DNA of 64,000 nucleotides from positions 39,235-103,234 of the forward strand of contig NZ_CAXREX010000182.1 in the NCBI RefSeq assembly GCF_964229645.1. The letters are read 5' to 3'. Under the pieces are notes generated by a model that saw nothing but the letters and a program-made list of their open reading frames with translations, was not told the DNA's origin and made no database searches. How positions within the stretch are numbered: the first letter of the stretch is position 1; the number at the start of each line of letters is the position of its first letter. The position numbers and the translations under genes are program-made. Positions 1,325 through 57,429 of the stretch are shown here, piece after piece. Source of the DNA: Nioella sp. Its GTDB lineage: Bacteria > Pseudomonadota > Alphaproteobacteria > Rhodobacterales > Rhodobacteraceae.

Positions 1325-1340
1325 TCTAACAGTTGACAGA
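1325..1340. promoter_or_regulatory. Degenerate copy of the TCTAACA-NN-TGTTAGA operator, overlapping a TTGACA -35 box upstream of iclR
   Basis: TCTAACAGTTGACAGA has 2 mismatches to consensus, with symmetric TTT/AAA flanks (TTTTCTAACA..TGACAGAAAA). TTGACA is at 1333-1338. Confidence 0.5.
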
Positions 1341-1405
1341 AAATACATACGCGGCCAATCTACTTTCTGAATACTGTTCATATAATAGTATGCTGGGAGG
1401 GGATT

Positions 1406-2224
1406 ATGGAAGCTGCGCATCAGACGCCGGTGAAGACCGGCGGGGGTCACATCGTGAAATCAGTTGCCCGAACCTGTGAAACGTTGGTGTATTTCGACGA
1501 GATGCGTCGACCGCTTTCGGTAGTGGAAGTATCCAGGAAACTTGGGTATCCGCAATCGAGTACCTCGGCGCTGTTGAAGAGTATGGTCAGCCTCGGCTTC
1601 CTGACGCACGATGCCCGAAACAAGAACTACTTCCCCACGGAACGGGTCCCGCTTTTGGGCTCTTGGATGAACCCGGATCTGTTCGGCGAAGGCATCATCC
1701 AGCGGCTGCTCAAGGCGATTGCGCAACGGACCCAGCATGTCGTTGTCCTGGGAACAAAGAACGGCGACGAAGCCGAGTATGTGCAGGTAATCCGTCCGAA
1801 GAAGTCGCCGATTCACCACATTTCCCTCGGCACGCGACGTCCGCTGGGGAATTCGGGGGTGGGACGGGTTCTGATGAGCCGCTTCAGCGATGAAGAAGTG
1901 TGTCGCCTGTTACGAAAGATCAATGCCTATCGTGCGCCCGACGAACCGGCGGTGGACGTGAAGGCTTTCGTCGCCTCGTTGGCCGAGACGCGTGCCAAGG
2001 GATACTATCGTTCGACCGATCAAGTCGTCAAAGGTGCCGGGTTGATCTCGATGCCCTTTCCCAGCCACCAGAGTTCCCGCCTGTTTGCCGTTGGGGTTGG
2101 TGCTCCGACGGATGTCATCCTGCGGTCCGAGAACGAAATTGTCAGGATCATGCGTGAAGAGATTCTTCAGAACTTGGGAAAGAAAGGTCATGACCACAGG
2201 TCTGTTGAACATCGGAGTTCTTGA
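1406..2224 (+). CDS. IclR family transcriptional regulator
   Basis: N-terminal HTH (KSVARTCETL...LSVVEVSRKLGYPQSSTSALLKSMVSLGFL) and IclR effector domain (SGVGRVLMS, ETRAKGYYRS). RBS GGGAGG upstream. Confidence 0.92.
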   Translation: MEAAHQTPVKTGGGHIVKSVARTCETLVYFDEMRRPLSVVEVSRKLGYPQSSTSALLKSMVSLGFLTHDARNKNYFPTERVPLLGSWMNPDLFGEGIIQRLLKAIAQRTQHVVVLGTKNGDEAEYVQVIRPKKSPIHHISLGTRRPLGNSGVGRVLMSRFSDEEVCRLLRKINAYRAPDEPAVDVKAFVASLAETRAKGYYRSTDQVVKGAGLISMPFPSHQSSRLFAVGVGAPTDVILRSENEIVRIMREEILQNLGKKGHDHRSVEHRSS

Positions 2225-2235
2225 CCGCCGTAAGT

Positions 2236-2277
2236 CCTGGGTCACCCCAGGATCCGGGGCGGAGATTTCCCGGATCC
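2236..2277. terminator. Two abutting GC-rich hairpins downstream of iclR
   Basis: CCTGGG/CCCAGG (2236-2251) and GGATCCGGG/CCCGGATCC (2250-2277) inverted repeats. No clear U-tract. Confidence 0.4.
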
Positions 2278-2294
2278 GATAGTCGGAGTCCTGT

Positions 2295-2630
2295 TCAGGT
2301 TCGCGCGTCGCCAAATGCCTGATCGACCGGCTTGCGAGAGAATTTGCCTGCCAAGAAGGGCCTGCGGGCCGCTATGCGCGCCATCGCCATTCGCGCATCA
2401 TAAACTGTCAATTCAGCAGCTGCCTCGTCCCCAACGCTTCTCCGAAGACTATCATCCAGCCATTCGACCGTCGTGCCTATATCACGCCAGGCATGATAGC
2501 TGTCCGTTTCGTCGCGGCGCCGCAGGTAGTCTTGCGGCCCTTCGCAGTTTTTTGATGGATGCCCCGAACCGTCACTGCAAACAGGGTGGAGTTTCAGTGC
2601 GGGCTGGGCCACGACGATGTGTTCGGCGGC
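2295..2630 (-). pseudogene. Degraded C-terminal fragment of a pRiA4b ORF-3-like (IS1096 passenger TnpR family) protein
   Basis: Translation EHIVVAQPALKLHPVCSDGSGHPSKNCEGPQDYLRRRDETDSYHAWRDIGTTVEWLDD...MAMARIAARRPFLAGKFSRKPVDQAF resembles, from memory, the family's YPxCxxGxGACPPEDCGGPxxY...RRDE...WRD...RRPF...FSR C-terminus. The PPED core is eroded and no N-terminal half is recognisable. Confidence 0.5.
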
Positions 2631-2877
2631 GCAATGATGACCAACGCGTTCGCCGCACGGCTGCACTTTCCCGGGTTTCCGGGCATCGTCGTCGCGCAGC
2701 TCCTGCCATAGCGGACCACGGCACGGGGGCAGGTGCCGTTCGACACGCTCGACATTCCGAATGCGCCGGTCAGCGGGGAGTTGATACTCTACCACGTTAC
2801 CGAAACAGCGCTGGGATGCGCAGGTCCACCGGACCGGCGATCGACGTGCGGACGCAACCGCGGCCTTCGTTCGCGCA

Positions 2878-37995: not shown

Positions 37996-38251
37996 CGCCG
38001 ATGAAAATGCGCGCACTTGAGGATACGTCCGGCGAACAATGGTTGTGCGACTGCGCTCAGAGCCCCCTTGGCAGACCCCCCGGCATCAGCGTAAACTGTT
38101 TATTTTGCAATGCCTTGCGCGCGCACGTCACAGATCGCCGATGTCGCCTCTCCAGCCTGCATACGAGGTTTCAAAACATAATCGGCTTTCTTTTTATAAC
38201 CATGTCTCCTAGATCGGAATCGTGCAGAATCCAAGCAGAGGTACACCGACC

Positions 38252-39377: not shown

Positions 39378-39386
39378 TGCGTGATT

Positions 39387-42893: not shown

Positions 42894-42913
42894 TCCTCAC
42901 CTTTCTTCACCGC

Positions 42914-42940
42914 AAAAAAGGCCGCACCATGGGCACGGCC
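42914..42940 (-). terminator. Rho-independent terminator between badH and the acyl-CoA synthetase
   Basis: Minus strand GGCCGTGCC-cat-GGTGCGGCC (9 bp, 2 G-U pairs) followed by TTTTTT. Confidence 0.6.
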
Positions 42941-43005
42941 AGTCAGGGAGGTAACTTCTGGCCGGCCTGGCGGCGGCGCCTTGTGACAGACGCGGCCCCC
43001 AGCGG

Positions 43006-43767: not shown

Positions 43768-43833
43768 ATGGAGGTCCTCCTCTTCCGCTATCATCCTGGC
43801 AAAGAACTTGATTCGACGCCTTCAATGGCATAT

Positions 43834-43849
43834 TCTAACATTTGTTAGA
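43834..43849. promoter_or_regulatory. Perfect operator palindrome TCTAACA-TT-TGTTAGA in the badH/tetR divergent promoter
   Basis: 43831-43852 is a 22-nt exact match to the reverse complement of 35698-35719. It sits between minus-strand -35 TTGCAT (43854-43859) and -10 TAGAAT (43832-43837). Confidence 0.85.
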
Positions 43850-43893
43850 TTTAATGCAATGGACAGTCTCGGTGCTGACAAGTATCGAAATTC

Positions 43894-45246: not shown

Positions 45247-45648
45247 TCAGACCAACAGGAAATGATATAGCCCTTCCGCAACCGGTTTCTCCCGGGCGGT
45301 CTGCCAGGAGATCACGCTGACGCTCGCGATGCGCTTTCCCTTGCGCGTCACATTTGCGCAGGCAAACAACGGTCCCCTGGTGGCGGGTCTGAGGTAATCC
45401 ACGGTGAGATTGATCGGCTTGGCCGGGACTTCCGCGAATTCGGGATGGACCGCGATGGCGGCCGTGGCTTCCATGAAACTGGCAATGATGCCGCCATGAT
45501 AAAGCTCCAAGACGGGGTTTCCGATATGGCGTGATTCGAAGGTCATCTCCGTGTCGGCACGGAGGCTGTCCACCTCCTGAACCTCGAAGTTGAGAAATCG
45601 AAAGAACGGCACCCGGGATACGTTGGCATTGACGGTTTGCAGGTCCAT
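45247..45648 (-). CDS. PaaI-family hot-dog thioesterase
   Basis: GNPVLELYHGGIIASFME, INLTVDYLRP and RKGKRIA motifs. Confidence 0.85.
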   Translation of the reverse strand: MDLQTVNANVSRVPFFRFLNFEVQEVDSLRADTEMTFESRHIGNPVLELYHGGIIASFMEATAAIAVHPEFAEVPAKPINLTVDYLRPATRGPLFACANVTRKGKRIASVSVISWQTAREKPVAEGLYHFLLV

Positions 45649-45679
45649 TACGAGGCGTTTCCTTCTGTCATTGCGCCAA

Positions 45680-46129
45680 TCAGCCGGTCTCGCCGCGCGT
45701 CAATGCAAACGAGGCGGTTCCGCGGGCGATTTCCGCCTCTTCATGACCGTCGAACCGGATGCTGCCGGCATTGAAGGCAATGTGGCGGGTTTGCCGAAAG
45801 CAATGCGCGCGCACGATGACATCCGCGCGCGACCGTGCCGCGCGCAGATAGTCAACCCGCAGGTCAAGGGTCGCCATGGTGCTGATCCCCTCTATGGCCA
45901 CGAAGTTCGCCAAACCGAAAACACTGTCCAGAAGGGCGGTCAGGATACCGCCATGAAGCAGGGTCTGGTCTTCATCGACGCAGAAGTCCGGATTGAACGG
46001 CATCCGGACCCGCACGCCGTCGCGCGATACGTCCTCGATATCAAGCGCCATGTGGGTAATCAGACCCTTGCCGCGCGCATTCCACATCCGCGCGATCTGC
46101 TCCATCTTCTGTTTGGTTATGTCTGCCAT
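45680..46129 (-). CDS. PaaI-family hot-dog thioesterase
   Basis: LLHGGILTALLDS and ATLDLRVDYLRAA motifs. Confidence 0.85.
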   Translation of the reverse strand: MADITKQKMEQIARMWNARGKGLITHMALDIEDVSRDGVRVRMPFNPDFCVDEDQTLLHGGILTALLDSVFGLANFVAIEGISTMATLDLRVDYLRAARSRADVIVRAHCFRQTRHIAFNAGSIRFDGHEEAEIARGTASFALTRGETG

Positions 46130-46141
46130 GCGTTCTTTTCC

Positions 46142-46945
46142 TCAGCGCCCCGTAAAGTTGGGTTTTCGCTTCTCGATGAACGCAGAGACCGCCTCGTGGT
46201 GGTCTTCGGTCTGATGCATCAGGGCCTGATAGGCCGCCGCGGAATTCAGGAAATCCGGCAAATCCATCCGCTCGGCATTGCGCATCAGGCGCTTGGCGAC
46301 GCGCACCGCGCGCGGTGGTTTCGCGGCGATCACGGCTGCCCGTTCCCGCGCCCGCTCCATCAACCTGTCATCGGGCACGACCTCGAGCACCATGCCGATT
46401 TCCAGCGCCTCTTCGGCCTCGACCATGCGGCCCGAAAAGGTCAGATCGGCGGCTCTTTGATGGCCCAGACGGCGCAGCAGGAACCAGCTGCCCGCATCGC
46501 CGGGAATGATGCCGAGGTTCAGGAACACCTCGCCGAACTTCGCCTTCTCGGACGCGATGCGCATGTCGCACATCATGGTCAGATCGCATCCCGCGCCGAC
46601 CGCCGGGCCGTTGACCGCCGCGATGGTCGGGATGTCGAGGTTGTAAAGCGCCTGTGGCAGACGCTGCACGCCGTCGACATAGCTCTGCGCCGCCGCCAGC
46701 GGCTCCTTGCGGAAGATACTTTCGGGGTCGTGCATTTCCTTGATGTCGCCGCCGGCACAAAAGGCCGTGCCGGCACCTGTCAGGATCATCACGCTGACCT
46801 CCGGGTCCGCCTGCACCTTGGCGAAGGTGTCCAGAAGGGCGGCGATCATGTCGTTGCCGGTCACCGGGTTGCGGCGTTCCGGATCGTTCAGCGTGACCGT
46901 GGCGATCCTGTCGGAAATGTCCAGAAGGACGGGGTGCTTACTCAT
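46142..46945 (-). CDS. Crotonase/enoyl-CoA hydratase family protein
   Basis: FCAGGDI, VNGPAVGAGCD and GEVFLNLGIIPGDAG motifs. Confidence 0.9.
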   Translation of the reverse strand: MSKHPVLLDISDRIATVTLNDPERRNPVTGNDMIAALLDTFAKVQADPEVSVMILTGAGTAFCAGGDIKEMHDPESIFRKEPLAAAQSYVDGVQRLPQALYNLDIPTIAAVNGPAVGAGCDLTMMCDMRIASEKAKFGEVFLNLGIIPGDAGSWFLLRRLGHQRAADLTFSGRMVEAEEALEIGMVLEVVPDDRLMERARERAAVIAAKPPRAVRVAKRLMRNAERMDLPDFLNSAAAYQALMHQTEDHHEAVSAFIEKRKPNFTGR

Positions 46946-47792
46946 TCTTTCCATCTCCGCGTTCGCGTTTCTCGAACATGTCGGGATTGATCATGTCGCG
47001 GGCATCGTGGCCCATATGCAGGGTTTCTCCGCCGTCGACATAGATGTCTTCGCCGGTGATGAAATTTCCCAGGTCGGACGCGAGGAAAATGATCGTGCCG
47101 GCGATGTCTTCGGGCGCGCCCATACGGTTCAGGACCGAGCGGTTCAGCTGTTTCCACCGGTCCGGCGGAATCGGATAGCGGCCAAGCGCCTCGGTCCTGA
47201 TCGTGCCCGGCGCGACGCAGTTCAGACGGATCCCGTATTCCCCCCATTCGGCGGCCAGCGTTTTCATCATCCCGGTCACGCCGGCGCGGGCGGCGACGGT
47301 ATGGGCAAACCCGGTCAGCGCGGTGCGCGCCGAAATCGCGGTGACGAACACCACCGACCCACCGTTGTCGTACATGAAATGATCCGCCGCCGCGCGGGTC
47401 ATCTGCCACGAACCGATCAGGTTGTTGCGGATCACCGCCTCGAAGCCCTTGTTGGTAATGTCGCGCGCGGCGGCAATATACTGGCCGCCTGCATTGTTCA
47501 CCAGAACGTCGAGCTGCCCGAAATGGTCCTTGATGCGTCCCATCGCGGTTTCGATACTGTCCGCGTCACGGGTATCGCCGGGCACGACAAATGCCTCGCC
47601 GCCCGCCGCGCGGATCATTTCTGCGGTCTCTTCCAGCGGTTCCTCGCGGCGCGCGAACAGCGCCAGCCTGGCCCCGCAAGAGGCCATTTCAAGCGCCGTT
47701 GCCCGACCCATTCCCGAACCCGATCCGGTGACAAGGGCCACCTGGCCCGCCATCAGATCCGGAGCATAGCGCGATGTTCTTTTCTCGCTCAT
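46938..47792 (-). CDS. SDR, AtuB (citronellol/citronellal dehydrogenase)/trans-2-enoyl-CoA reductase-like
   Basis: TGSGSGMG, LVNNAGGQY, GFEAVIRNNL and HTVAARAGV motifs, typical of the AtuB/PECR-like SDR group. Confidence 0.8.
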   Translation of the reverse strand: MSEKRTSRYAPDLMAGQVALVTGSGSGMGRATALEMASCGARLALFARREEPLEETAEMIRAAGGEAFVVPGDTRDADSIETAMGRIKDHFGQLDVLVNNAGGQYIAAARDITNKGFEAVIRNNLIGSWQMTRAAADHFMYDNGGSVVFVTAISARTALTGFAHTVAARAGVTGMMKTLAAEWGEYGIRLNCVAPGTIRTEALGRYPIPPDRWKQLNRSVLNRMGAPEDIAGTIIFLASDLGNFITGEDIYVDGGETLHMGHDARDMINPDMFEKRERGDGKNE

Positions 47793-47802
47793 GTTTCCCC
47801 CT

Positions 47803-49002
47803 TCAGTCTTTCAGAAGCTCGCCCGCAATGATCAGCTTGCGCACTTCCTGAGTGCCCGCACCGACCTCGAGCACACGGCCGGTCCGGTAAAGCCGGTTCA
47901 CTTCCGTGTCGCGCATGTAGCCGGACCCCCCGTGGATCTGGACGGCCTTGTCCAGCACGAATGAGGTCACCTCGGCGGCCTTGAAGATCGCCGCCGCCGT
48001 CAGCTTGTGAATTTCGCCGCGCCCGCCTTCGCCCTCTTCCAGACCCTCGCACATGGCGACCGTCTTCAGCGACAGGCTGCGCGCCGCCTCGATCCGCGTG
48101 TACATGTCGGCCAGCATCGCCTGCACCATCTGGAAACTGGCGATCGGTTTGCCGAACTGTCGGCGCGTCCTGGCGTAGTCGACGGAAATATCCAGCGCGC
48201 GCTGCGCGATCCCCAGGGCATTGAAGCAGACGATGGCCCGTTCGAGATCCAGCCCCGACATGGTCACCGCCACACCGCCGTCCAGCTTGCCGACCATGTT
48301 CTTGGCGGGCACACGACAATCCTCGAACACCAATTCGCCTGTTGGCGATCCGCGGAACCCCATCTTGTTGAGCTTCTGCGCCACCTTGAAGCCGGGGGTG
48401 TCGGTCTCCACGATGAAGGCGGAAATGCCCTTGGCGCCTTTTTCCGGCGAGGTCTTGGCATAGACCAGCACCAGATCGGCAATCGGCCCGTTGGTGATGT
48501 AAATTTTGGCCCCGTTCAGGATGTAATCGTCGCCATCCTTTTTGGCCGTGGTCCGCATGGAGCCAAGCGCATCGGACCCCGCGCCGGGCTCGGTCAGGCC
48601 CAGGGCGCCCACCAGCGAGCCATCGCACAGGCCCGGCAGATACTTGCGGCGCAACGCGTCATTGGCGTTGCGATAGATGTTGTTGACGCACAGGTTGTCA
48701 TGCGCCACATGGGTCAGCCCGATCGCGGCAGAGGCCCGCGACAGCTGTTCGGTGATGATGCAGGCCGAGGTGAAATCCAGCCCGGCCCCGCCGAATTCCG
48801 GTGGCACGTTCAGACCGAGATACCCCATCTTGCCGAGCGTGGGAAAGACCGATGGCGGCAGGTCGTCGGTGTCGTCCATTTCCGCGTTCAGATGGTGAAA
48901 CTCGGACATGAAGAACTTGCCGGCCTGATCGGCCAGCGCCTGCTGTTCGTCCGTCATGAAATGCGTCGGAAGGGTGATGTCGTTTCGCAGTTGCTTGTTC
49001 AT
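47803..49002 (-). CDS. Isovaleryl-CoA dehydrogenase-like ACAD (paralogue B)
   Basis: AHDNLCVNN, LTEPGAGSDALG, MSGLDLERA (catalytic Glu) and VGAGTQEV motifs. Start reassigned to ATG 49002. Confidence 0.9.
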   Translation of the reverse strand: MNKQLRNDITLPTHFMTDEQQALADQAGKFFMSEFHHLNAEMDDTDDLPPSVFPTLGKMGYLGLNVPPEFGGAGLDFTSACIITEQLSRASAAIGLTHVAHDNLCVNNIYRNANDALRRKYLPGLCDGSLVGALGLTEPGAGSDALGSMRTTAKKDGDDYILNGAKIYITNGPIADLVLVYAKTSPEKGAKGISAFIVETDTPGFKVAQKLNKMGFRGSPTGELVFEDCRVPAKNMVGKLDGGVAVTMSGLDLERAIVCFNALGIAQRALDISVDYARTRRQFGKPIASFQMVQAMLADMYTRIEAARSLSLKTVAMCEGLEEGEGGRGEIHKLTAAAIFKAAEVTSFVLDKAVQIHGGSGYMRDTEVNRLYRTGRVLEVGAGTQEVRKLIIAGELLKD

Positions 49003-49016
49003 GGTCCCGCCCTCCT

Positions 49017-50231
49017 TCAGGCGCGCAGCAGTTCTTCGGCGATGATGATCTTGCGGACTTCGCTGGTGCCCGCGCCGATCTCCAGCAGCTTGTTGGCGCG
49101 GAACAGCCGGTTGATCTCGGTGTCCTGCATGTAGCCCGATCCGCCGTGGATGTGGCAGGCCTCGGTGACGGCCTTGTTGAACGCCTCGCCCGCGTAAAGG
49201 CAGGCCGCCGCGGTCAGCTTGTGGATCTCGCCGCGCCCGCCGGCCCCCTTGGGCAGGCCGACGCAGGCGGCCAGCGCGCGATAGCTGAAGGCGCGGGCGG
49301 TTTCGACCTCGGTGTAAATCTCGGCGAGCTTCGACTGCATCATCTGGAAGCGGGAGATCGACTTGCCGAATTGTTCTCGGATCTGCGCGTATTCCAGACC
49401 CAGCTCCAGCGCCCGTTCGGCCATGCCGACGCAGACCGAGGCGACCATCGCCCGTTCCAGATCCAGCCCGCTCATCACGACCGATACGCCGCTGTTTTCG
49501 GCGCCCATCATGGCCGAGGCCGGCACCCGGCACTCCTCGAACACCAGCTCCCCGGTGGGCGAGCCGCGAAAGCCCATCTTGTCGAGCTTCTGCGCCACCT
49601 TGAAACCCGGATTGTCGGTTTCAACGATAAAGGCGGAAATGCCCTTGGCACCTCTGGACTTGTCGGTTTTGGCATAAAGCAGGATCAGATCGGCGATCGG
49701 CCCGTTGGTGATGTAAATCTTCGAGCCGTTGATGATGTAATCATCGCCATCGCGACGCGCCGTGGTGGCCATCGACCCAAGCGCATCCGACCCGGCGCCG
49801 GGCTCGGTCAGCCCCAGGGCGCCGACCAGCTCGCCGGAACACAGCCCCGGCACATATTTCCTGACCTGTTCGTCGGACCCGTTGCGCAGCAGGTTGTTCA
49901 GACACAGGTTGTCATGTGCCCCGTGCGACAGGCCCACCGCCGGGTTCCATTTCGAGATCACCTCGGACACCAGCGCCTGGGTGAATTCGTTCTGGCCCGA
50001 TCCGCCCAGTTCCTCGGGCGCGGTAATGCCCAGAAGGCCCAGTTCACCCATCTGCCGGAACAGATCGTCGGGCCACCAGTCCTCCTCGTCCATGCGCGCC
50101 TGAAGCGGATGAAGCACCTCGCGCGACACCCTGTCGACGTGATCGACGATCTGGCGCTGCTCATCGGTCAGCGAGTAATTGGCCCTGATGGCCTCCAAAG
50201 CGGCCACGTCAGGTACGTTCTGGCTGGTCAT
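49017..50231 (-). CDS. Isovaleryl-CoA dehydrogenase-like ACAD (paralogue A)
   Basis: GAHDNLCLNN, LTEPGAGSDALG, MSGLDLERA and IGAGTSEV motifs. Start reassigned to ATG 50231. Confidence 0.9.
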   Translation of the reverse strand: MTSQNVPDVAALEAIRANYSLTDEQRQIVDHVDRVSREVLHPLQARMDEEDWWPDDLFRQMGELGLLGITAPEELGGSGQNEFTQALVSEVISKWNPAVGLSHGAHDNLCLNNLLRNGSDEQVRKYVPGLCSGELVGALGLTEPGAGSDALGSMATTARRDGDDYIINGSKIYITNGPIADLILLYAKTDKSRGAKGISAFIVETDNPGFKVAQKLDKMGFRGSPTGELVFEECRVPASAMMGAENSGVSVVMSGLDLERAMVASVCVGMAERALELGLEYAQIREQFGKSISRFQMMQSKLAEIYTEVETARAFSYRALAACVGLPKGAGGRGEIHKLTAAACLYAGEAFNKAVTEACHIHGGSGYMQDTEINRLFRANKLLEIGAGTSEVRKIIIAEELLRA

Positions 50232-50275
50232 CTCTCTTCCCCCGAACGGAATGTGATCTGCGGTGTTGACCAAAA

Positions 50276-50291
50276 TCAAACACATGTTAGA
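50276..50291. promoter_or_regulatory. Operator TCAAACA-CA-TGTTAGA in the ACAD/crotonase divergent promoter
   Basis: 1 mismatch. It lies between minus-strand -35 TTGATC (50297-50302) and -10 TTGATT (50274-50279), 17-bp spacer. Plus-strand TTGACC is at 50266-50271. Confidence 0.8.
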
Positions 50292-50364
50292 AAATAGATC
50301 AAGGCAGGCTTTTTGCGACCTGACGTTGCAGGCGACGCAAAGGGAGATGCGGGAGGTCTCGGAA

Positions 50365-51150
50365 ATGGTTGATAACGTCGTACATTCGCAGGCGCGGGGG
50401 CATGAAACGCGCATCACGATTTGCCGTCCGGACCAGCGCAATGCCCTGAACCGCGACGTGGCAGAGGGAATCACTGCCGCGCTTCTGACGGCCGAGGCCG
50501 ATCCCGAATGCCGGGTGATCGTTGTGACCGGCGAGGGCGTGCGCGCTTTCTGCGCTGGCGGCGACCTCAAGGCGGGGGCCGATGGCGGCCCGTTTGTTCA
50601 GGACCCGGCGGATCCGGACCATTTTGCCGGCCGGCTGTTCGAAACGATACAGGCCTGCCGAAAACCGACCATCGCGCGCATCAACGGAGTGGCGGTTGGC
50701 GCGGGCGCGGGCATGATCTGTGCCTGCGATCTCGCGGTGATGGCGGATCACGCGAAAATCGGCACGCCCGAGGTGAAGGTCGGTCTGTTTCCGATGACCA
50801 TCGTGCCGCCGATGATGCGCGTGTTGCCGCGTCGGAAACTGATGGAGATGTTCATCACCGGCGTCCTGCTGACGGCGGACGAGGCCCTGCGCTATGATCT
50901 GGTCAACTATGTGACAGACAGCGCCGGACTTGACGACAAGGTTGCGGAACTGGTCGCACGGATTGCGGCGCAGTCGCCGACTGCGATCAGGCTCGGAAAA
51001 TATGCCTGCCACGCATTGCAAGACATGACCTATCCGCAGCAGATGCGCTTTGCGGAAACGCTGTTGCCGCGGATGGCGCAGACCGAAGACGCGCGAGAGG
51101 GGTTTGCCGCTTTCAATGAAAAACGCGACCCTGAATGGACGGGCCGCTGA
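50365..51150 (+). CDS. Crotonase-family hydratase, LiuC/AtuE-like (glutaconyl-CoA-type hydratase)
   Basis: FCAGGDL, GAGAGMICACD (no first Glu) and PEVKVGLFP motifs. ATG 50365 follows GGGAGG. Confidence 0.82.
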   Translation: MVDNVVHSQARGHETRITICRPDQRNALNRDVAEGITAALLTAEADPECRVIVVTGEGVRAFCAGGDLKAGADGGPFVQDPADPDHFAGRLFETIQACRKPTIARINGVAVGAGAGMICACDLAVMADHAKIGTPEVKVGLFPMTIVPPMMRVLPRRKLMEMFITGVLLTADEALRYDLVNYVTDSAGLDDKVAELVARIAAQSPTAIRLGKYACHALQDMTYPQQMRFAETLLPRMAQTEDAREGFAAFNEKRDPEWTGR

Positions 51151-51172
51151 CAGGAGCGGTGAGGAGAAGGCT

Positions 51173-52972
51173 ATGTCGGATCGAAGACTGCGCATCGGAT
51201 GCGCTTCCGGTTTCTGGGGCGATACGCCCGAAGCGGTCGGCCAGTTGGTGTCCAAGGGCGAAATCGACTATCTGGTGTTCGATTATCTTGCCGAAGTGAC
51301 GATGTCGCTGATGGCGCGCGCCCGCGCCAAGACGCCGGAGGCGGGCTTTGCCCCGGATTTCGTCAAGGCGCTGGTGCCGTGGTTGCCCGAGATCAAGGCC
51401 AGGGGGATCAAGGTTGTGGCCAATGCCGGCGGCGTCAATCCGCGCGGCTGCCGCGATGCGCTCGCCAGGGCGGCAGAGGCGGCTGGGATCGACCTGTCCA
51501 TCGGTGTCGTTCTGGGCGACGATCTGCTGGACCGCGCGGACGAGATGCGCGACGGCGGCGTGAGCGAAATGTTCTCTGGCGCCGGTTTCCCCGACGATAT
51601 CTGGAGCATGAACGCCTATCTGGGCGCCCGCCCCATCGCGGCGGCGCTGGACGGCGGCGCCGACATCGTGATCACCGGGCGCTGCGCCGACAGCGCGGTG
51701 GCGCTTGGCCCCTTGATGCACGAATTCGGCTGGAGCGACGAGGATTGGGACAGGCTCAGCCAGGGCTCGCTCGCGGGCCATCTGATAGAATGCGGACCGC
51801 AAGGGACGGGGGGCAATTTCACCGACTGGCAGGAGGTGCCGGGCTGGGACAATATGGGGATGCCCATCGTCGAAGTGGCCGAAGACGGCAGCTTTGTCAT
51901 GACCAAGACGCCCGATACCGGCGGGCTGGTTGTGCCGGGCTCGGTCGGCGAACAGATGCTTTACGAAATCGGCGATCCACGGGCCTACCTGCTGCCCGAC
52001 GTGATCTGCGACTGGTCCGGGGTCACGCTCGAACAGGTCGGCCCGGACCGGGTGCTGGTCAAGGGCGGCAGGGGGCTGGGGCGCACCGGAAGCTACAAGG
52101 TCTCGGCGACCCATGCCGATGGCTGGCGCGCGGTCACCACGCTGACGCTCGCCGCAATCGACGCCCCGGCCAAGGCCGAGCGCGTCGCCGAGGCGATCCT
52201 GACCCGCTGCCGGCGGATTTTCCGCGACCGCAACCTCGCCGATTTTCGACAGGTCAGCGTCGAGGTTCTGGGGGCGGAGGCCGCTTACGGCGCCAACGCC
52301 CGCGCCCGGACGCGCGAGGTCGTTCTGAAGATCGGCGTCACTCATGACGACCGAAACGCGCTGAACATCTTCGCCGGAGAAATCGCGCCGATGGCCATTT
52401 CCACCGCGCAGGGCCTGACCGGGTTCTTCGCCGGACGGCCCAAGGTGCAGCCGGTGGTGCGGCTGTTCTCGTTCCTGCAAGACAAGGCCGACACGCCCGT
52501 TTCGGTCGAGGTCGACGGCAAGGAGGTGCCGGTCACCGTGGCCACCAAGGAGGTCCGACTGGATCCGCCCGCCGCACCGCAGGTGGAAAGCCGCGAGGCC
52601 GGGCCCGACGCGGTCAGGGTGCGGCTGGTCGATCTGGCCTGGGGCCGCTCCGGCGACAAGGGCGACATCGCCAATATCGGCATTCTGGCCCGCAAGCTAG
52701 AGTATCTGCCCTATATCCGCTCCGCCCTCACCGAAGACAGGGTGAAAGACTATTTCGCGCATCTCTGCGACGGCCCGGTCGAACGTTTCGACCTGCCCGG
52801 CAGCCATGCGATGAACTTCCTGCTGCATGAATCGCTGGGCGGCGGCGGCATCGCCTCGGTCCGCATCGACCCGCAGGGCAAGGGGTTTGCGCAGATGCTG
52901 CTCGACATCGAAATTCCCGTGCCGGCCGATCTGGCGGCGCAAGACGGGCTGCACCCCGCCGAGCGTGCATGA
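51173..52972 (+). CDS. atuA: Acyclic terpene utilization AtuA family protein (DUF1446)
   Basis: RIGCASGFWGD, DYLVFDYLAEVTM, NAYLGA, GHLIECG, RSGDKGD and DPQGK motifs. Confidence 0.9.
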   Translation: MSDRRLRIGCASGFWGDTPEAVGQLVSKGEIDYLVFDYLAEVTMSLMARARAKTPEAGFAPDFVKALVPWLPEIKARGIKVVANAGGVNPRGCRDALARAAEAAGIDLSIGVVLGDDLLDRADEMRDGGVSEMFSGAGFPDDIWSMNAYLGARPIAAALDGGADIVITGRCADSAVALGPLMHEFGWSDEDWDRLSQGSLAGHLIECGPQGTGGNFTDWQEVPGWDNMGMPIVEVAEDGSFVMTKTPDTGGLVVPGSVGEQMLYEIGDPRAYLLPDVICDWSGVTLEQVGPDRVLVKGGRGLGRTGSYKVSATHADGWRAVTTLTLAAIDAPAKAERVAEAILTRCRRIFRDRNLADFRQVSVEVLGAEAAYGANARARTREVVLKIGVTHDDRNALNIFAGEIAPMAISTAQGLTGFFAGRPKVQPVVRLFSFLQDKADTPVSVEVDGKEVPVTVATKEVRLDPPAAPQVESREAGPDAVRVRLVDLAWGRSGDKGDIANIGILARKLEYLPYIRSALTEDRVKDYFAHLCDGPVERFDLPGSHAMNFLLHESLGGGGIASVRIDPQGKGFAQMLLDIEIPVPADLAAQDGLHPAERA

Positions 52973-52980
52973 AAGGAAGG

Positions 52981-54453
52981 ATGATGGGTATTTCCAAACT
53001 GCTGGTCGCCAATCGCGGCGAGATCGCGGCCCGCGTCCTGCGCACCGCCAAGGCGCGCGGCCTCGCCACCGCCGTCTTGCGGCACAACTCGGAACAGGAG
53101 GGACCGGCCCATCTGATTGCCGACGAGGTGGTGACCATCGAGGGCCCGACCCCCGTGGCCGCCTATCTCGACATCCCCCAGATCGTCGAGGCGGCGCAAC
53201 GGATCGGCGCGGACGCGGTGCATCCGGGCTATGGCTTCCTGTCGGAAAACGCGGGCTTTGTCGCCGCGCTGGACAAGGCCGGGGTGACGTTTGTCGGCCC
53301 CACATCCGAGGTCATCGACCTGATGGGCGACAAGATCCGCGCCCGCGCCTTTGTCGAGGAGCGCGGCTTTCCGGTTGCCCCCTCGGCCATCGAGGATGAC
53401 GACCCCGCTACATTTGTCGAACGCTCTCGCGCGGTTGGCTATCCGCTGCTGATCAAGCCCTCGGCGGGCGGTGGTGGCAAGGGGATGCGCGTCGTGCGCG
53501 AAGACGGCGCGCTGGAATCCGAAATCGAAACCGCCCGCCGCGAGGGCGAGCGCTATTTCGGCGACGGACGGCTGTTCGTCGAACGCTATATCGAACGCCC
53601 GCGCCATATCGAGGTGCAGGTGATGGGGGACGGGCAGGGGAATGTGGTGCATTTCTGGGAACGCGAATGCTCGATCCAGCGCCGGTTCCAGAAGATCATC
53701 GAGGAAACGCCATCCCCGGCGCTGACCCCCGAACAGCGGGACGAGATCTGTGAAACCGCCGCCGGGATTGCCCGCGCCGTCAAATATCGCGGCGCTGGCA
53801 CGGTCGAGTTCATCTATGCGCAGGACGGCGCCTTCTATTTCCTGGAAATGAACACCCGCCTTCAGGTCGAACATCCGGTGACCGAGATGGTGACCGGCTT
53901 CGACCTTGTCGCCGAACAGCTGCGCATCGCGGCGGGCGAGGGGCTGAGCGCCGCACAGGCCGATATTGCGCAGAACGGTCATTCGATCGAACTGCGCATT
54001 TGCGCCGAGGACGCGACGGAAGATTTTCGCCCCGCCATCGGCGACATCCTTCTGCTGGACGAGCCGCAGGGCGCGGGCGTGCGGGTGGACAGCGGCATTC
54101 TGGGCGGTGGCAAGGTGACGACCGATTTCGACCCGATGCTGTCCAAGCTGATCGTGCACGGCTCGGACCGGGCCGAGGCCATCGCCCGCGCGCGTCAGGC
54201 GGTTCGGAATTACGTGATCCTCGGGGTGACGACCAATACCGGCTATCTCGATGCGATCCTTGCGCATCCGGATTTCGCCTCGGGCAATGTCTCGACCGGG
54301 TTTCTGGCCGAGCAGGCCGAGGCGCTGACCGCGCCGGGCGAAGATGTGACCGAGCTGCTGATGGCGGTCGCCGCCCTGTCGGATGAACGGCTGGTGAGCG
54401 ACGTGATGCAGATACCCGAGATGCACCGGAAAATGGGCGGGTGGAGAAACTGA
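52981..54453 (+). CDS. Stand-alone biotin carboxylase subunit, module 2
   Basis: LVANRGEIA, HPGYGFLSENA, ECSIQRRFQK and EMNTRLQVEHPVTE motifs. Ends at GGWRN with no biotinyl domain. Confidence 0.92.
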   Translation: MMGISKLLVANRGEIAARVLRTAKARGLATAVLRHNSEQEGPAHLIADEVVTIEGPTPVAAYLDIPQIVEAAQRIGADAVHPGYGFLSENAGFVAALDKAGVTFVGPTSEVIDLMGDKIRARAFVEERGFPVAPSAIEDDDPATFVERSRAVGYPLLIKPSAGGGGKGMRVVREDGALESEIETARREGERYFGDGRLFVERYIERPRHIEVQVMGDGQGNVVHFWERECSIQRRFQKIIEETPSPALTPEQRDEICETAAGIARAVKYRGAGTVEFIYAQDGAFYFLEMNTRLQVEHPVTEMVTGFDLVAEQLRIAAGEGLSAAQADIAQNGHSIELRICAEDATEDFRPAIGDILLLDEPQGAGVRVDSGILGGGKVTTDFDPMLSKLIVHGSDRAEAIARARQAVRNYVILGVTTNTGYLDAILAHPDFASGNVSTGFLAEQAEALTAPGEDVTELLMAVAALSDERLVSDVMQIPEMHRKMGGWRN

Positions 54454-54956
54454 TGCGGCGGATATACCAGATCGACGGCGACGAAACCGAATGCTGGCTG
54501 TCCCATGACGGCAATCGTTTTATCCTCAACACGCCCGATGGCGCGGTTCCCTGCCAATTGGACCCCACCGGGGCGCCCGGTGGCCATGTGCTGCGGGCGC
54601 GCGGACGCGTGCAGGACGTGCGGCTGGCCGTCGGCCCTGACGCGACTTTTGTGCATATGAACGGGCGGACCTACGCGATCGGGCGGATCGATCCCGCCGA
54701 GCGTCTGGCCGGACGCGATGGCGGCGCCGCCGATGACCGCATCGTCGCACCGATGCCCGGCGTGGTCGTGTTGGTGAACGCAAAGCCCGGCGATCACGTC
54801 AAGGAAGGCCAGCGGTTGCTTGTCATCGAAAGCATGAAACTCGAAACCAGCCTGACCGCGCCGCGCGACGGCGTGGTGGCCGAAATACCATTTGCCGAGG
54901 GCGACAGTTTCGGGCTGAAGGCCACGCTTGCCCTGCTGGCGCCGGAGGAGGAGTGA
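54453..54956 (+). CDS. BT-like + biotin carboxyl carrier protein, module 2
   Basis: APMPG..., VIESMKLETSLTAPRDG biotinyl motif. TGATG overlap with the biotin carboxylase stop. Confidence 0.88.
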   Translation: MRRIYQIDGDETECWLSHDGNRFILNTPDGAVPCQLDPTGAPGGHVLRARGRVQDVRLAVGPDATFVHMNGRTYAIGRIDPAERLAGRDGGAADDRIVAPMPGVVVLVNAKPGDHVKEGQRLLVIESMKLETSLTAPRDGVVAEIPFAEGDSFGLKATLALLAPEEE

Positions 54957-54958
54957 CC

Positions 54959-56566
54959 ATGCGCCGGATCGAAAGCCAGATCGACACCAATGCCCCTGAC
55001 TTCAGGGTCAATCACGCGGCCATGTCCGCGCGGCTGAAAGAGTTTCACGCCCGCCAGCACGCGGCGCGTTTCGAACGCCCGCAACGCGACGTCGATCGCC
55101 TTGAGCGCCAGAACAAGCTGGGCGTGCGCGAACGGCTGAAGCTGCTGCTGGACCCCGGCACGCCGTTCCTGGAATTTTCCACCCTCGCCGCCTGCCGCGA
55201 ATATGACGGCGCGGTGCCCGGTGCCGCGGTGGTGACGGGCATCGGCATCGTGCAGGGGCGCGAGGTCGCCATTCACGCCAACGACGCCAGCGTCAAGGGC
55301 GGCGCATGGTATCCCCATACCGTCAAGAAGATCGTGCGGCTTCTGGATGTGGCATTGGAAAACCGCCTGCCGGTTGTCCATATCTGCGACAGCGCCGGCG
55401 GCTTCCTGCCGTTGCAGCACGGAGTCTTTCCCGACCGCTATCTGGGCGGGCGGGTCTTCCGCAATCAGGTCAAGCTGAGCCAGGCCAACATCCCGCAGAT
55501 CGCGGTGGTCGGCGGGCATTGCACGGCCGGCGGGGCCTATGTGCCGACGCTCAGCGATTACAACATCATCATCGAAGGCACCGGGGCGATTTTCCTTGGC
55601 GGTCCGCCGCTGGTCAAGGCCGCGACCGGCGAAGAGGTCGGCGTTCAGGAGCTGGGCGGGGCGGTGATGCATACCTCGGTCTCGGGCACCGGCGATTACC
55701 GCGCCGCCACCGAACAGCACGCTTTTTCACTGGCGCGCGAGATTGTCAGCCAGTGGACGCGCCCGCCGAAAACGATCATCGAAACCGTCGCCTGTGAAGC
55801 GCCGTATTACGACCCCAAGGAACTCTACGGGATCATCCCCAAGGACCGGAAAACCCAGTTCGACATGCGCGAGGTTCTGGCCCGGATCGTGGATGGCTCG
55901 CGGTTTCACGAATACCAGCCTGACTACGGCACCACGATGATCTGCGGCTATGCCCATATCTGGGGCTACAAGGTGGGGATTCTGGCCAACAACGGGGTGC
56001 TGTTCAACGACAGTTCGCTCAAGGCCGCGCATTTCATGCAGCTGTGCAACCAGAACCGCACGCCTCTGGTCTTTTTCCAGAACATCACCGGCTACATGGT
56101 GGGGCGCGAATACGAGGAACGCGGCATCGCCAAGGACGGCGCCAAGATGCTGATGGCGCAGGGCGGGTCGGTGGTGCCGAAATTCACCGTGATCGCCAAT
56201 GCCTCATACGGCGCGGGCAATTACGGCATGTGCGGACGGGCCTGGGATGCGCGCACGCTGTTCATGTGGCCGCAGGCGGAAATCGGCGTGATGGGCGCGG
56301 ATCAGGCCGCCAATACCATGGCCGACGTCAAGATCCGGCAGCTTCAGCGCGAGGGCAAGGAGTTGAGCGAAGAGGAAATCGCCGCGATCCGCGATCCGGT
56401 GCTGGAGAAATTCCGGCGCGATGTCGAAGCCTATACCTCGACCTCGGAATTGTGGGACGACGGCATCCTCGACCCGGCGGATACACGCAACGCGCTCGGC
56501 ATGTCGATTTCGGCCTCGCTGAACGCGCCGATCGACGATCCGCATTACGGGATATTCCGGCTGTGA
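54959..56566 (+). CDS. Acyl-CoA carboxylase carboxyltransferase (MCC-beta-like), module 2
   Basis: ANDASVKGG, HCTAGGAY, SYGAGNYGMCGRA and LWDDGI motifs. ATG 54959 follows GGAGGAG. Confidence 0.93.
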   Translation: MRRIESQIDTNAPDFRVNHAAMSARLKEFHARQHAARFERPQRDVDRLERQNKLGVRERLKLLLDPGTPFLEFSTLAACREYDGAVPGAAVVTGIGIVQGREVAIHANDASVKGGAWYPHTVKKIVRLLDVALENRLPVVHICDSAGGFLPLQHGVFPDRYLGGRVFRNQVKLSQANIPQIAVVGGHCTAGGAYVPTLSDYNIIIEGTGAIFLGGPPLVKAATGEEVGVQELGGAVMHTSVSGTGDYRAATEQHAFSLAREIVSQWTRPPKTIIETVACEAPYYDPKELYGIIPKDRKTQFDMREVLARIVDGSRFHEYQPDYGTTMICGYAHIWGYKVGILANNGVLFNDSSLKAAHFMQLCNQNRTPLVFFQNITGYMVGREYEERGIAKDGAKMLMAQGGSVVPKFTVIANASYGAGNYGMCGRAWDARTLFMWPQAEIGVMGADQAANTMADVKIRQLQREGKELSEEEIAAIRDPVLEKFRRDVEAYTSTSELWDDGILDPADTRNALGMSISASLNAPIDDPHYGIFRL

Positions 56567-56585
56567 CCGTCCGGGATTCGGCGCA

Positions 56586-57197
56586 TCAGGTCGTCTGCTG
56601 CCGCGCCTCCTGAATGGACACCACATCAGAGGCCGCCATCTCGGGCCGGTCGGCCTCGACCGCGTTCAGCGGGTCGACGGGTTTCAAACCTGCCAGACAG
56701 TCGCGCGCCAGTTGCTGATATTCGGCGGTTCCACGGGTTTTCCACGCGACTTCCTTCTCGGTGACCTCGCGGATCACCTTTGCCGGCGCTCCGACCACCA
56801 TCGAACGCGGCGGGATCACCGTTTCCCCCCGCACAAACGCCTGCGCGCCGACAATCGATTCCGCGCCAAGCTCCACGCCGTCCATGATGACGGCATTCAT
56901 GCCCACCAAAGCATTCCGGCCGACGGTGCACCCGTGCAGAATCGCGCCATGGCCGATATGACCGTTGGTTTCGACCACCGCATCGCGGCCCGGGAAGGAA
57001 TGGAGGATGCAATTGTCCTGAACATTGGCCCCGTCACCGATCACGATCCTGCCGAAATCGCCCCGCAGGCTTGCGCCGGGTCCGATATAGCACCCCTGAC
57101 CGAGTATGACATTTCCGATCAGCACCGCCTGGGGATGAACGAATGTCCCCTCGGGCACAACGGGAACGAAGCCTTTGAATTGATAGCAATTGGCCAT
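56586..57197 (-). CDS. paaY: PaaY/CaiE-like gamma-carbonic-anhydrase-fold protein
   Basis: Hexapeptide repeats, [28 protein letters not shown] and [13 protein letters not shown] motifs. Confidence 0.8.
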
Positions 57198-57335
57198 TGT
57201 TCTTTTCCTTTTTCGGGCTGGGCGTCTCTGGAGTCCGGCTTCGGGCGCCCGATGTTCAACAACCGCCTTTCCAGCTCACGTGCGGGCCGGAAGGCCGAAG
57301 GCGGTGCGCCGTTTCAGAAGGCGCGGCACGATTAT

Positions 57336-57351
57336 TCAAACACATGTTAGA
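57336..57351. promoter_or_regulatory. Operator TCAAACA-CA-TGTTAGA (paaY promoter)
   Basis: 57336-57355 is identical to 50276-50295 (20 nt). It lies between minus-strand -35 TTGCCG (57357-57362) and -10 TTGAAT (57334-57339), 17-bp spacer. Confidence 0.8.
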
Positions 57352-57384
57352 AAATTCGGCAAGGATCGCTCCGCTGCGTCGATG

Positions 57385-57429
57385 TTGACACTGTCTGGCG
57401 GCAGGATGTAAAATCTAACAAGTGGTAGA
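57385..57429 (+). promoter_or_regulatory. Sigma70-type promoter TTGACA-N18-TAAAAT with operator TCTAACA-AG-TGGTAGA (57414-57429) over the predicted start site
   Basis: TTGACA at 57385-57390 and TAAAAT at 57409-57414. The 1-mismatch palindrome follows immediately. Confidence 0.75.

Follow-up and report, generated by a model that had tools for sequence, protein, structure and literature searches.

A recurrent palindrome and a double TetR-family repressor very probably switch a plasmid-type acyl-CoA degradation island in marine bacteria

Gene content of the window

The window (the whole 64-kb stretch of DNA that we analysed) comes from a Roseobacteraceae bacterium and contains an Atu/Liu-like island for acyl-CoA catabolism, which in relatives lies on conjugative plasmids. 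The island holds three carboxylase sets together with BadH-like and dienoyl-CoA-reductase genes, and no steroid ring-opening genes were found in it. Genes within operon A overlap or are separated by small gaps, as judged from GC3 gene calls and orthologue annotation. The genes considered here are as follows.

1406–2224, plus strand: IclR-family regulator (Pfam), a possible secondary target
23640–35658, minus strand: operon A, encoding ACAD, ECH, ACAD, PaaK-like CoA ligase, carboxyltransferase, biotin carboxylase, HMG-CoA lyase, SDR, CitE-like lyase and ACAD
35754–38827, plus strand: unit B, with 2,4-dienoyl-CoA reductase (35754–37787), a truncated AMP-ligase remnant (37821–37994) and a flavodoxin-like gene (38222–38827) (Pfam)
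38922–43794, minus strand: operon C, encoding BadH-like SDR, acetate/acetoacetate-CoA-ligase-like enzyme, NmrA-like protein, AraC-type HTH_18 protein and 4HBT thioesterase
43894–45228, plus strand: internally duplicated double TetR-family regulator of 444 aa, the proposed repressor
45247–50231, minus strand: operon E, encoding two ACADs, SDR, ECH and two PaaI thioesterases
50347–56566, plus strand: operon F, encoding ECH, AtuA (DUF1446), biotin carboxylase, BCCP and carboxyltransferase
56586–57197, minus strand: gene G, hexapeptide-repeat transferase
57484–64000, plus strand, continuing past the window end: operon H, encoding SCPx-type thiolase, SDR, carboxyltransferase, ECH and biotin carboxylase

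A palindrome at the divergent promoters

A pattern search of the 64 kb recovered six copies of TCTAACA-NN-TGTTAGA with at most two mismatches, exactly where a first-pass annotation had placed them and with the mismatches that it had counted: none at 35701 and 43834, one each at 50276, 57336 and 57414, and two at 1325. That annotation had called such repeats very unlikely by chance, in agreement with dinucleotide-preserving shuffles, in which the same tolerance produced no match at all (mean 0.00, maximum 0). At three mismatches a single match was added, at 24085 within a coding region, against 0.19 expected. The weight-matrix scan that the annotation had suggested was run over the window with a symmetric matrix trained on orthologous sites; the six sites scored 22–38.5 bits, and no further match of at least 8 bits was found in the window, a cut-off at which shuffles yield 0.13. 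The sites are listed below.

1325–1340: candidate weak operator I, TCTAACAGTTGACAGA, 66 bp upstream of iclR
35701–35716: operator D, perfect palindrome TCTAACAAATGTTAGA, in the gap that separates the 10-gene leftward operon from the 2,4-dienoyl-CoA reductase gene
43834–43849: operator T, perfect palindrome TCTAACATTTGTTAGA, flanked by the BadH-like SDR operon and the double TetR gene; putative autoregulatory site
50276–50291: operator E, TCAAACACATGTTAGA, between the ACAD-ACAD-SDR-ECH-PaaI-PaaI operon and the ECH-AtuA-carboxylase operon
57336–57351: operator H1, TCAAACACATGTTAGA, on the hexapeptide-transferase side of the 57.2–57.5 kb junction
57414–57429: operator H2, TCTAACAAGTGGTAGA, directly 3' of the -10 box in the promoter of the SCPx-thiolase/SDR/Liu-type carboxylase operon

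Direct reading confirmed two longer matches reported earlier, an exact reverse complement of 22 nt between 35698–35719 and 43831–43852 and an identical stretch of 20 nt at 50276–50295 and 57336–57355. The annotation had also described every copy as intergenic and every divergent promoter region from 35 to 58 kb as carrying one. The first statement holds for all six sites if mechanically called ORFs that are too long are shortened to the starts that annotated orthologues support, and the second for all four junctions (35658/35754, 43794/43894, 50231/50347 and 57197/57484). The sole divergent junction of the left part (21067/21289) is without a site.

Several sites coincide with predicted promoter elements. 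Operator D scores 38.5 bits, and its right arm makes up the extended -10 in one predicted promoter, TTTCCA-16-TG-n-TAGAAT (TTTCCA-16-TGtTAGAAT). A predicted promoter TTGACC-18-GAAAAT (50266–50295) encloses operator E, and another, TTGACA-18-TAAAAT (11/12), ends at 57414 and abuts operator H2. Site H2 is conserved in relatives, and H1 has an aligned, more degenerate counterpart on the S. alexandrii and R. indicus plasmids (ACAAACACAAGTTAGA). At 50276, 57336 and 57414 the arms are imperfect but conserved, which probably makes for lower affinities.

This overlap could be read as showing no dedicated repressor at all, the inverted repeat being two overlapping divergent promoters with facing extended -10 elements (TGnTAGAAT). 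The arms do resemble such elements, the right arm with its flank reading TG-T-TAGAAT and being scored as an extended -10, while the site flanks resemble -35 boxes of the opposite promoters; promoter constraint may explain part of the conservation. However, G15 and A16, at positions 3 and 4 of the -10 hexamer, are invariant or nearly so, whereas its key last T is not (TAGAAA at E, TAGATT at T). The 57414 site lies downstream of a complete TTGACA-18-TAAAAT promoter, outside its -10, sites in metagenomes are flanked by a TTGACG-type -35 on one side and a single operon's ribosome-binding site on the other, and the motif strictly co-occurs with one regulator family. We consider a purely promoter-based origin highly improbable.

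The site upstream of iclR is the least secure of the six, and doubtful. It scores 22.2 bits, is invariant in 4 close relatives and overlaps a longer inverted repeat (1328–1348/1358–1378). Its right arm, however, coincides with a TTGACA box. Of the first-pass proposal that iclR belongs to the regulon, the presence of the motif at 1325 stands; membership itself is doubtful, because iclR promoters at 79% and 52–58% protein identity retain TTGACA and lack the left arm. If functional, this site would connect the transporter and CoA-enzyme genes on the left with the island.

Across loci selected by the presence of the TetR gene (198 motif instances in 1.59 Mb), C2, A4, A5, C6, T12 and G15 are invariant and the central NN is free; the invariant core is CTAAC-N4-GTTAG, with T3 and A14 predominating without being invariant. 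The motif recurs at the orthologous divergent junctions in 67 loci for operator E, where the left-arm T-to-A deviation is likewise conserved, and in 38 for operator D. In 78 of 80 species loci, an equivalent of operator T lies about 60 bp (-61) ahead of the TetR start. Motif and TetR gene are kept together across alphaproteobacteria. Where the regulator is only 53–58% identical and the context is rearranged, a site still adjoins or precedes the TetR operon, and metagenome matches place tandem TetRs of 45–50% identity directly beside perfect sites. In the reverse test, 27 of 60 GC-rich metagenome motif matches belonged to this cluster; others showed no TetR within the short stretch covered. In sequence terms the sites have the features of repressor operators: they are non-random, intergenic, located on core promoter elements, and conserved beyond their surroundings together with the regulator.

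The double TetR protein and its proposed regulon

The gene at 43894–45228 is the sole TetR gene within the window. Pfam places TetR_N in two stretches of its product (E 1e-34) and TetR_C_24 in two (E 1e-29), so that two complete TetR units, each with a helix-turn-helix and an all-helical C-terminal ligand/dimerisation domain, share one polypeptide. The halves are 40% identical to each other, and their two recognition helices are almost identical (AGS[IV]YYHFxSK). Both helix-turn-helix motifs are intact, G-S-x-Y-Y-H-F-x-S-K is invariant in each half among 65 homologues, and the tandem length of 430–480 aa is kept in more than 100. The AF2 model (pLDDT 83.8, pTM 0.84) had full-length Mce3R as its top Foldseek match (430 columns, TMq 0.61, TMt 0.69), followed by the acyl-CoA-sensing TetRs AibR, KstR2, FadR and PfmR (TMt 0.75–0.85 per half). 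PDB sequence matches were TetR regulators throughout, including KstR2 and FadR. The C-terminal domains are of the TetR_C_24/TetR_C_4 type of acyl-CoA-responsive TetRs (KstR2, FadR/YsiA, AibR, PfmR). Some homologues are automatically labelled 'cholesterol catabolism regulator'.

On sequence evidence, we think it likely that the six palindromes are operators of this double TetR, which would be autoregulated, silence operons A–H and be released by an acyl-CoA. The 444-aa chain would fold as an intramolecular pseudo-dimer, each recognition helix reading one CTAAC arm of CTAAC-N4-GTTAG; the predicted model suggests a stoichiometry of one monomer per palindrome. Every operator would fall on either the -10 box or the spacer between -35 and -10 in a pair of overlapping promoters set back to back, with the conserved site flanks reading as the -35 boxes of the opposite promoters. 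A single repressor bound there would thus bar RNA polymerase in both directions. In the bound state, operons A–H (about 23.6–64 kb) and the repressor's own gene would be silent, a single autoregulated repressor blocking four divergent promoter pairs, until a pathway acyl-CoA intermediate bound the TetR_C_24 ligand domain(s) and the repressor left the DNA. The first-pass annotation had proposed that one repressor, the tandem TetR, coordinates eight promoters over nearly all of the right-hand ~40 kb. Its extent agrees with the regulated stretch of about 23.6–64 kb, and strong comparative evidence, from which we infer binding, supports the single repressor (the 78/80 upstream sites, the orthologous junctions and orthologues of 45–58% identity elsewhere).

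Other proteins could in principle read the sites. Both the AraC-type HTH_18 protein (39387–40136) and the IclR protein (1406–2224) are encoded within the island, and many relatives keep the AraC-type gene in synteny. However, three distant site-bearing loci (L087, L088 and L089) have no AraC or IclR gene nearby, and iclR orthologues exist without the motif. TetR dimers typically recognise palindromes of this kind, perfect over 16 bp and with 5-bp arms; the usual targets of AraC-type proteins are repeats that are asymmetric or direct. Of the alternatives weighed here, we give binding by either protein the least credence.

Less remote, though still unlikely, is that the sites are genuine TetR-type operators whose main binder is a single-domain, homodimeric TetR2-like paralogue encoded elsewhere, with the double TetR at most a co-regulator. 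In relatives, the SDR and carboxyltransferase genes flank a gene for a TetR2 of 209 aa, which is 35–38% identical to each half and has a recognition helix, AGSIYYHFGSK, identical to that of the double TetR. A related box, TTGACT..CCTAACAGGCGTTAGT, lies upstream of TetR2, and CCTAACACCTGTTAGG precedes such a gene in L088. Single-domain relatives at 35–47% identity are numerous, and in two metagenome loci (L134 and L195) perfect sites lie close to single-domain homologues. Yet TetR2 and its box are deleted from the window, which retains all six sites; the only site position kept in essentially every species is that ~60 bp upstream of the double TetR; and the double TetR remains with its site where the gene context has changed.

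The double TetR remains our preferred repressor, and the palindrome and this protein very probably switch a ~40 kb plasmid-type fat/terpene-acid degradation island in marine bacteria. The double TetR and its site have not been described before; the regulatory logic is ordinary.

Comparison with known regulators

The prototype double TetR-family repressor is Mce3R (Rv1963c) of Mycobacterium tuberculosis (PDB 9b7y; PMC11667970, PMC3711444), whose halves belong to different TetR subgroups with non-identical helix-turn-helix motifs and which binds 25-bp non-palindromic sites (PMC11667970). Both proteins carry two complete TetR units per chain, are autoregulated and control lipid/CoA-type metabolism genes (here, as predicted), and both have two operator copies in one promoter region (57336 and 57414 here). 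Neither halves of different subgroups, nor differing helix-turn-helix motifs, nor an asymmetric operator was found in the present system: its halves are 40% identical, its recognition helices match and its operator is a 16-bp palindrome. Mce3R and the double TetR are only 15% identical, the sequence similarity to single-domain TetRs is stronger, and collinearity is lost in the best sequence match. These differences suggest that the duplication arose independently, in Alphaproteobacteria instead of Actinomycetes. The protein may be an independently evolved single-chain TetR in which duplication fixed the dimer and both heads were kept identical, so that a monomer reads a symmetric 16-bp operator, although we hold this only tentatively. 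If so, the result, a single-chain TetR on a symmetric operator, would be the reverse of that in Mce3R. The two ligand domains, diverged to 40% identity, could then integrate two different acyl-CoA signals at every promoter, and the regulon would encode a marine pathway, widespread and carried on plasmids, that acts on methyl-branched or alicyclic (terpenoid-like) acids.

The first-pass annotation had not recognised the motif as a described box and had excluded the KstR, KstR2 and PaaR sites. The exclusion stands for KstR, whose box is TAGAAC-N2-GTTCTA with core TnnAACnnGTTnnA (PMC1995591): the AAC–GTT spacing is 4 bp in all six sites versus 2, and the arm differs. The annotation had left unconsidered the PsrA box of Pseudomonas and other gamma/beta-proteobacteria (C/GAAAC-N2-4-GTTTG/C; TTCAAAC-N4-GTTTGAA; PMC13104628). 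PsrA, compared by box and description only, is likewise a TetR-family repressor, in its case of beta-oxidation and fatty-acid-responsive, and its box shares two 5-bp arms 4 bp apart, promoter overlap and autoregulation. The left arms of 50276 and 57336 (TCAAAC) are exact PsrA-type arms. The boxes are nevertheless not identical: the consensus here, CTAAC/GTTAG rather than C/GAAAC, differs by one base per arm, CAAAC occurs in only one arm of 50276 and 57336, and PsrA is a single-domain homodimer.

The actinomycete steroid-catabolism regulators KstR and KstR2 offer the architecture proposed here, one TetR repressor acting on many short palindromes in the divergent promoters of a large CoA-thioester cluster, with the operator overlapping the -10 box; KstR2 also has the same C-terminal family, TetR_C_24. 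Unlike these systems, the present one has a double TetR and lacks steroid ring-opening genes.

In gene content, parallels exist with the atu and Liu clusters of Pseudomonas aeruginosa, which encode acyclic terpene and leucine/isovalerate pathways. Shared with them are AtuA, geranyl-CoA- or methylcrotonyl-CoA-type carboxylases, HMG-CoA lyase, ACADs and hydratases, as well as a TetR repressor gene divergent from the structural genes; the three carboxylase sets and the BadH-like and dienoyl-CoA-reductase genes set the island apart. AtuR is single-domain and has been reported to bind two 13-bp inverted repeats. Finally, in Tn10, palindromic tetO operators lie in overlapping divergent promoters and one repressor, TetR, controls its own and the structural gene; that TetR is a single-domain homodimer with a drug ligand and a single locus, whereas the double TetR is predicted to govern a multi-operon regulon.

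The palindromic sites and their promoters

A search of the window with TCTAACANNTGTTAGA at up to two mismatches returned exactly six matches, in the same six places where the first-pass annotation had reported copies of the palindrome TCTAACA-NN-TGTTAGA. The sites, the promoter boxes next to them and the proposed repressor are:

1325, two mismatches, upstream of iclR
35701, no mismatch; predicted TTTCCA-16-TAGAAT with TG upstream, the right arm forming the extended -10
43834, no mismatch, putative autoregulatory site; TTGATT-N17-TATTCT towards the TetR gene and TTGCA[AT]-N16-TAGAAT towards the SDR gene, both read by eye and under the tool threshold in the window
50276, one mismatch; predicted TTGACC-18-GAAAAT enclosing the operator
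57336, one mismatch
57414, one mismatch; operator immediately after a predicted TTGACA-18-TAAAAT (11/12)
43894-45228, plus strand, ORF of the 444-aa double TetR, the proposed repressor

None of 100 dinucleotide-preserving shuffles of the window contained a match, in agreement with the earlier judgement that a chance origin is very unlikely. We also ran on the window the weight-matrix scan that had been suggested, using a symmetric matrix made from orthologous sites of other species; the six sites scored 22–38.5 bits and everything else in the 64 kb below 8 bits. Allowing three mismatches added one match, at 24085 (0.19 expected), which we discarded as a site: it falls in coding DNA, stays under 8 bits and agrees with chance expectation. 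The two extended identities claimed for the copies (22 nt and 20 nt) proved exact on reading the sequence, and all six sites were indeed intergenic once mechanical ORFs had been trimmed to starts supported by annotated orthologues. Between 35 and 58 kb, each of the four divergent junctions has a site, as had been claimed; one was looked for at the divergent junction 21067/21289, in the left part of the window, and was absent there. The six palindromes are therefore confirmed as real.

The conserved flanks of the sites resemble sigma-70-type boxes of predicted overlapping back-to-back promoters, and on the opposite strand a conserved GATCAAG right of sites 35701 and 50276 reads as a TTGATC -35 box for the leftward operon. 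By its sequence, this geometry would be that of classical promoter occlusion, with one bound protein acting in both directions. We consider it likely that the double TetR represses its own gene, binds the six operators and thereby occludes eight or nine promoters, and that an acyl-CoA intermediate would release it.

The double TetR and the motif across genomes

The 43894-45228 ORF encodes two copies each of TetR_N and TetR_C_24, and the window contains no other TetR-like sequence. The two halves of the protein share 40% identity from end to end, so it is the product of an internal duplication. Both helix-turn-helix motifs are intact across 65 homologues, in which the recognition-helix residues G-S-[IV]-Y-Y-H-F-x-S-K are invariant and the same in both halves. 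A confident AlphaFold2 model (pLDDT 83.8, pTM 0.84) had as its top structural match full-length Mce3R (TMq 0.61, TMt 0.69), to our knowledge the only solved double TetR; the next-best matches were all single-domain acyl-CoA sensors (PfmR, AibR with isovaleryl-CoA, KstR2 and FadR with stearoyl-CoA). The species collection has 242 stretches matching the double TetR, which is found in at least 80 roseobacter-type species representatives; its closest orthologue, at 93%, is in Sediminimonas qiaohouensis. Clustered at 50%, the orthologues form a small group; further tandem relatives have 25–36% identity, and many single-domain relatives are 35–47% identical to one half.

For comparison we used the loci around double-TetR orthologues of 68–93% identity in 80 species, so that motif counts refer to TetR-anchored loci. 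A site with up to two mismatches lies at a constant offset, 61 bp before the double-TetR gene, in 78 of the 80; one exception has no upstream DNA and the other is a 1.8-kb contig. Sites also occur at the junction between the acyl-CoA dehydrogenase (ACAD) genes and the enoyl-CoA hydratase-AtuA genes (67 loci) and at the ACAD/dienoyl-CoA-reductase junction (38 loci). Even in distant orthologues (53–58% identity; Phyllobacteriaceae-like and metagenomic), whose neighbourhoods are rearranged, the site still adjoins the gene. In locus L089, a perfect palindrome is followed by a transglutaminase-core/MaoC/ACAD/double-TetR operon. This comparative evidence supports the earlier proposal of a regulon with one repressor, the tandem TetR, and one operator type. 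A binder of AraC type or an IclR protein deserves hardly any credence, as the genes for such proteins do not travel with the motif.

Across the 1.59 Mb of loci there are 198 motif instances. Numbered along the palindrome, C2, A4, A5, C6, T12 and G15 are invariant, T3, G11, T13 and A14 nearly so, and the two central bases are free; the core is CTAAC-N4-GTTAG. These positions bear on whether the palindromes could be promoter elements and nothing else, a reading that fits poorly and that we regard as very improbable: G15 never varies, whereas the final T of the -10 hexamer does, and site 57414 lies outside the -10 box. The main rival to the double TetR is a single-domain paralogue whose recognition helix is identical and which would be the main binder. 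In relatives such a protein, TetR2, is encoded between the SDR and carboxyltransferase genes, together with a related box, CCTAACAGGCGTTAGT; it has been deleted from this window, and we think it unlikely to take the place of the double TetR as the principal repressor.

In a reverse test, metagenomes were scanned for the exact palindrome with A/T flanks, giving at least 120 loci. Among those listed, 60 are GC-rich, 27 of them representing the same island, and half are AT-rich chance matches, including two 312-bp tandem arrays. Double TetRs of 45–50% identity directly adjoin the site in two of the GC-rich loci listed. A recurrent group among the loci listed has the site before CoA-transferase/SCPx/MaoC and transglutaminase-core/MaoC/ACAD operons, the latter being the operon type that in L087 and L089 is linked with the double TetR. 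The test is supportive of a link between motif and regulator but incomplete, because the metagenome stretches are short.

Thirteen metagenome contigs carry perfect sites flanked as GTTGACG-N17-tAATCTAACAnnTGTTAGAAA-GGAGG-ATG ahead of operons of these two types, on stretches without the regulator, and give the impression of a broader regulon among other GC-rich bacteria. Five contigs of ~50% GC share a conserved non-coding context round a perfect palindrome (gagggtaacaac...AATCTAACAAATGTTAGAATgggggatataaggtgcgtaag) that is probably unrelated to the regulon. Two AT-rich contigs (~30% GC) repeat the motif many times, ~312 bp or a multiple of that apart, as a tandem array with no relation to the regulon.

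The iclR site and the catabolic island

Site 1325 is the weakest of the six, and the earlier inclusion of iclR in the regulon is the least secure. Its 22 bits are far above background, so we lean towards a functional site in this lineage, but the left arm is missing from iclR orthologues at 79% (Litorivita, which also carries the double TetR) and 52–58% identity; TTGACA is retained in three of four of these promoters. TCTAACAGTTGACAGA is invariant in four relatives, but the whole iclR promoter is 86% conserved there. The site overlaps a longer inverted repeat upstream of iclR (1328-1348/1358-1378; 21 nt, imperfect, 76% complementary, arms 9 nt apart), a candidate for the IclR protein's own operator. 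With TTGACA at 1334 taken as the iclR -35, no canonical -10 was found 16–18 nt away, and we set that reading of the box aside. Positions 1376-1396 read ATACTGTTCATATAATAGTAT, which includes a perfect TATAAT, and distant iclR promoters have a recurrent GTTCA-containing stretch adjoining a TATAAT- or TAATGT-like -10 box.

The window DNA is alphaproteobacterial (Roseobacteraceae). Identity to plasmid pRIdsm_01 of Roseovarius indicus DSM 26383 is mosaic, 94% over the left 25 kb (1-25000) versus ~84% in the right part (35000-58000), which suggests recombination between island variants. The same island occurs on plasmids of Sulfitobacter, Pseudosulfitobacter, Sagittula, Marinovum, Roseibium, Paracoccus and Phaeobacter, and 15 of 62 matching records were typed as conjugative.

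Its predicted gene content is that of Atu/Liu-like acyl-CoA catabolism: three acyl-CoA carboxylase sets, AtuA, HMG-CoA lyase, many acyl-CoA dehydrogenases and enoyl-CoA hydratases, CoA ligases, 2,4-dienoyl-CoA reductase, PaaI thioesterases and an SCPx-type thiolase. Three biotin-dependent carboxylase sets (27492-31116, 52969-56566 and 59623-64000) are an unusual density for a 40-kb island, and AtuA/DUF1446 is paired with one of them. The SDR adjoining the regulator (43006-43794) scores best against BadH, 2-hydroxycyclohexanecarboxyl-CoA dehydrogenase (371 bits, below the curated cut-off of 431); a methyl-branched and/or alicyclic acid is therefore a possible substrate. Two ACADs (47803-50231) have cyclohexanecarboxyl-CoA dehydrogenases among their matches and, with the BadH-like SDR, hint at an alicyclic ring-opening branch.

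Some stretches of the window are reduced or empty of genes. At 37821-37994 lies a remnant of an AMP-dependent ligase, its first ~60 codons (64% identity), the remainder being deleted; in relatives the intact gene comes after the dienoyl-CoA reductase. The TetR2 of relatives (L001:37449-38264) is 209 aa long, with its own box TTGACT..CCTAACAGGCGTTAGT, next to a Liu-type carboxyltransferase gene; at 59523-59623 of the window, gene and box are missing and 99 bp are left. A ~1-kb gap between convergent genes (22620-23640) has no convincing ORF and is 95% identical to an equally unannotated gap of the R. indicus plasmid. Metatranscriptome contigs over the locus were sparse and without end pile-ups; one spans the 50.2–50.3 kb junction.

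Comparison with known operators and double TetRs

Our literature search found no paper on this regulator, box or gene cluster in roseobacters, an absence that is not proof, and the regulator and box appear undescribed. Literature matches to TCTAACA/TGTTAGA with TetR were due to chance (a half-site in P. aeruginosa alkB2 probes; a KstR probe list). The KstR box, TAGAAC-N2-GTTCTA (PMC1995591), differs in spacing and arms, so the motif is not a KstR site, as the first-pass annotation had stated. The PsrA box, C/GAAAC-N2-4-GTTTG/C (for example, TTCAAAC-N4-GTTTGAA; PMC13104628), shares this architecture, with one base different in each arm; on these grounds the motif belongs to the familiar operator style of fatty-acid-sensing TetR regulators. 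The deviant left arms of 50276 and 57336 are exact PsrA-type arms, and we rejected the motif as a PsrA box because it departs from the PsrA consensus.

The system is of an ordinary kind, a CoA-thioester catabolic island whose divergent promoters contain palindromic operators for a TetR repressor, and the regulatory logic is classical TetR-type promoter occlusion rather than a new principle. The motif offers a simple, testable entry to a large catabolic island, one found on conjugative plasmids in relatives. Defining regulon and inducer is the shortest route to the marine compound degraded, with the genes pointing to methyl-branched or alicyclic acyl-CoAs. In Rhodobacterales, a single-chain repressor whose short operator functions within compact bidirectional promoters could also be a useful tool.

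Double TetRs have been described as an actinomycete family whose type, Mce3R, has dissimilar halves and 25-bp non-palindromic sites (PMC3711444, PMC11667970); the present protein, in contrast, has similar halves and is paired with a symmetric operator. A literature search for double TetRs outside Actinomycetes returned Mce3R-related work only. Operators 57336 and 57414 start 78 bp apart, the same distance as between the centres of the two Mce3R sites (25 bp plus 53 bp; PMC11667970). The agreement is probably coincidental, since in S. alexandrii and R. indicus the two operators are 4 bp further apart. The sequence of the double TetR is less similar to Mce3R than to single-domain TetRs, which points to an independent origin. 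The pairing of a duplication-derived double TetR and a symmetric operator is a twist of modest interest, and invites a natural comparison with Mce3R as to the fate of operator symmetry once the dimer is fused in one chain.
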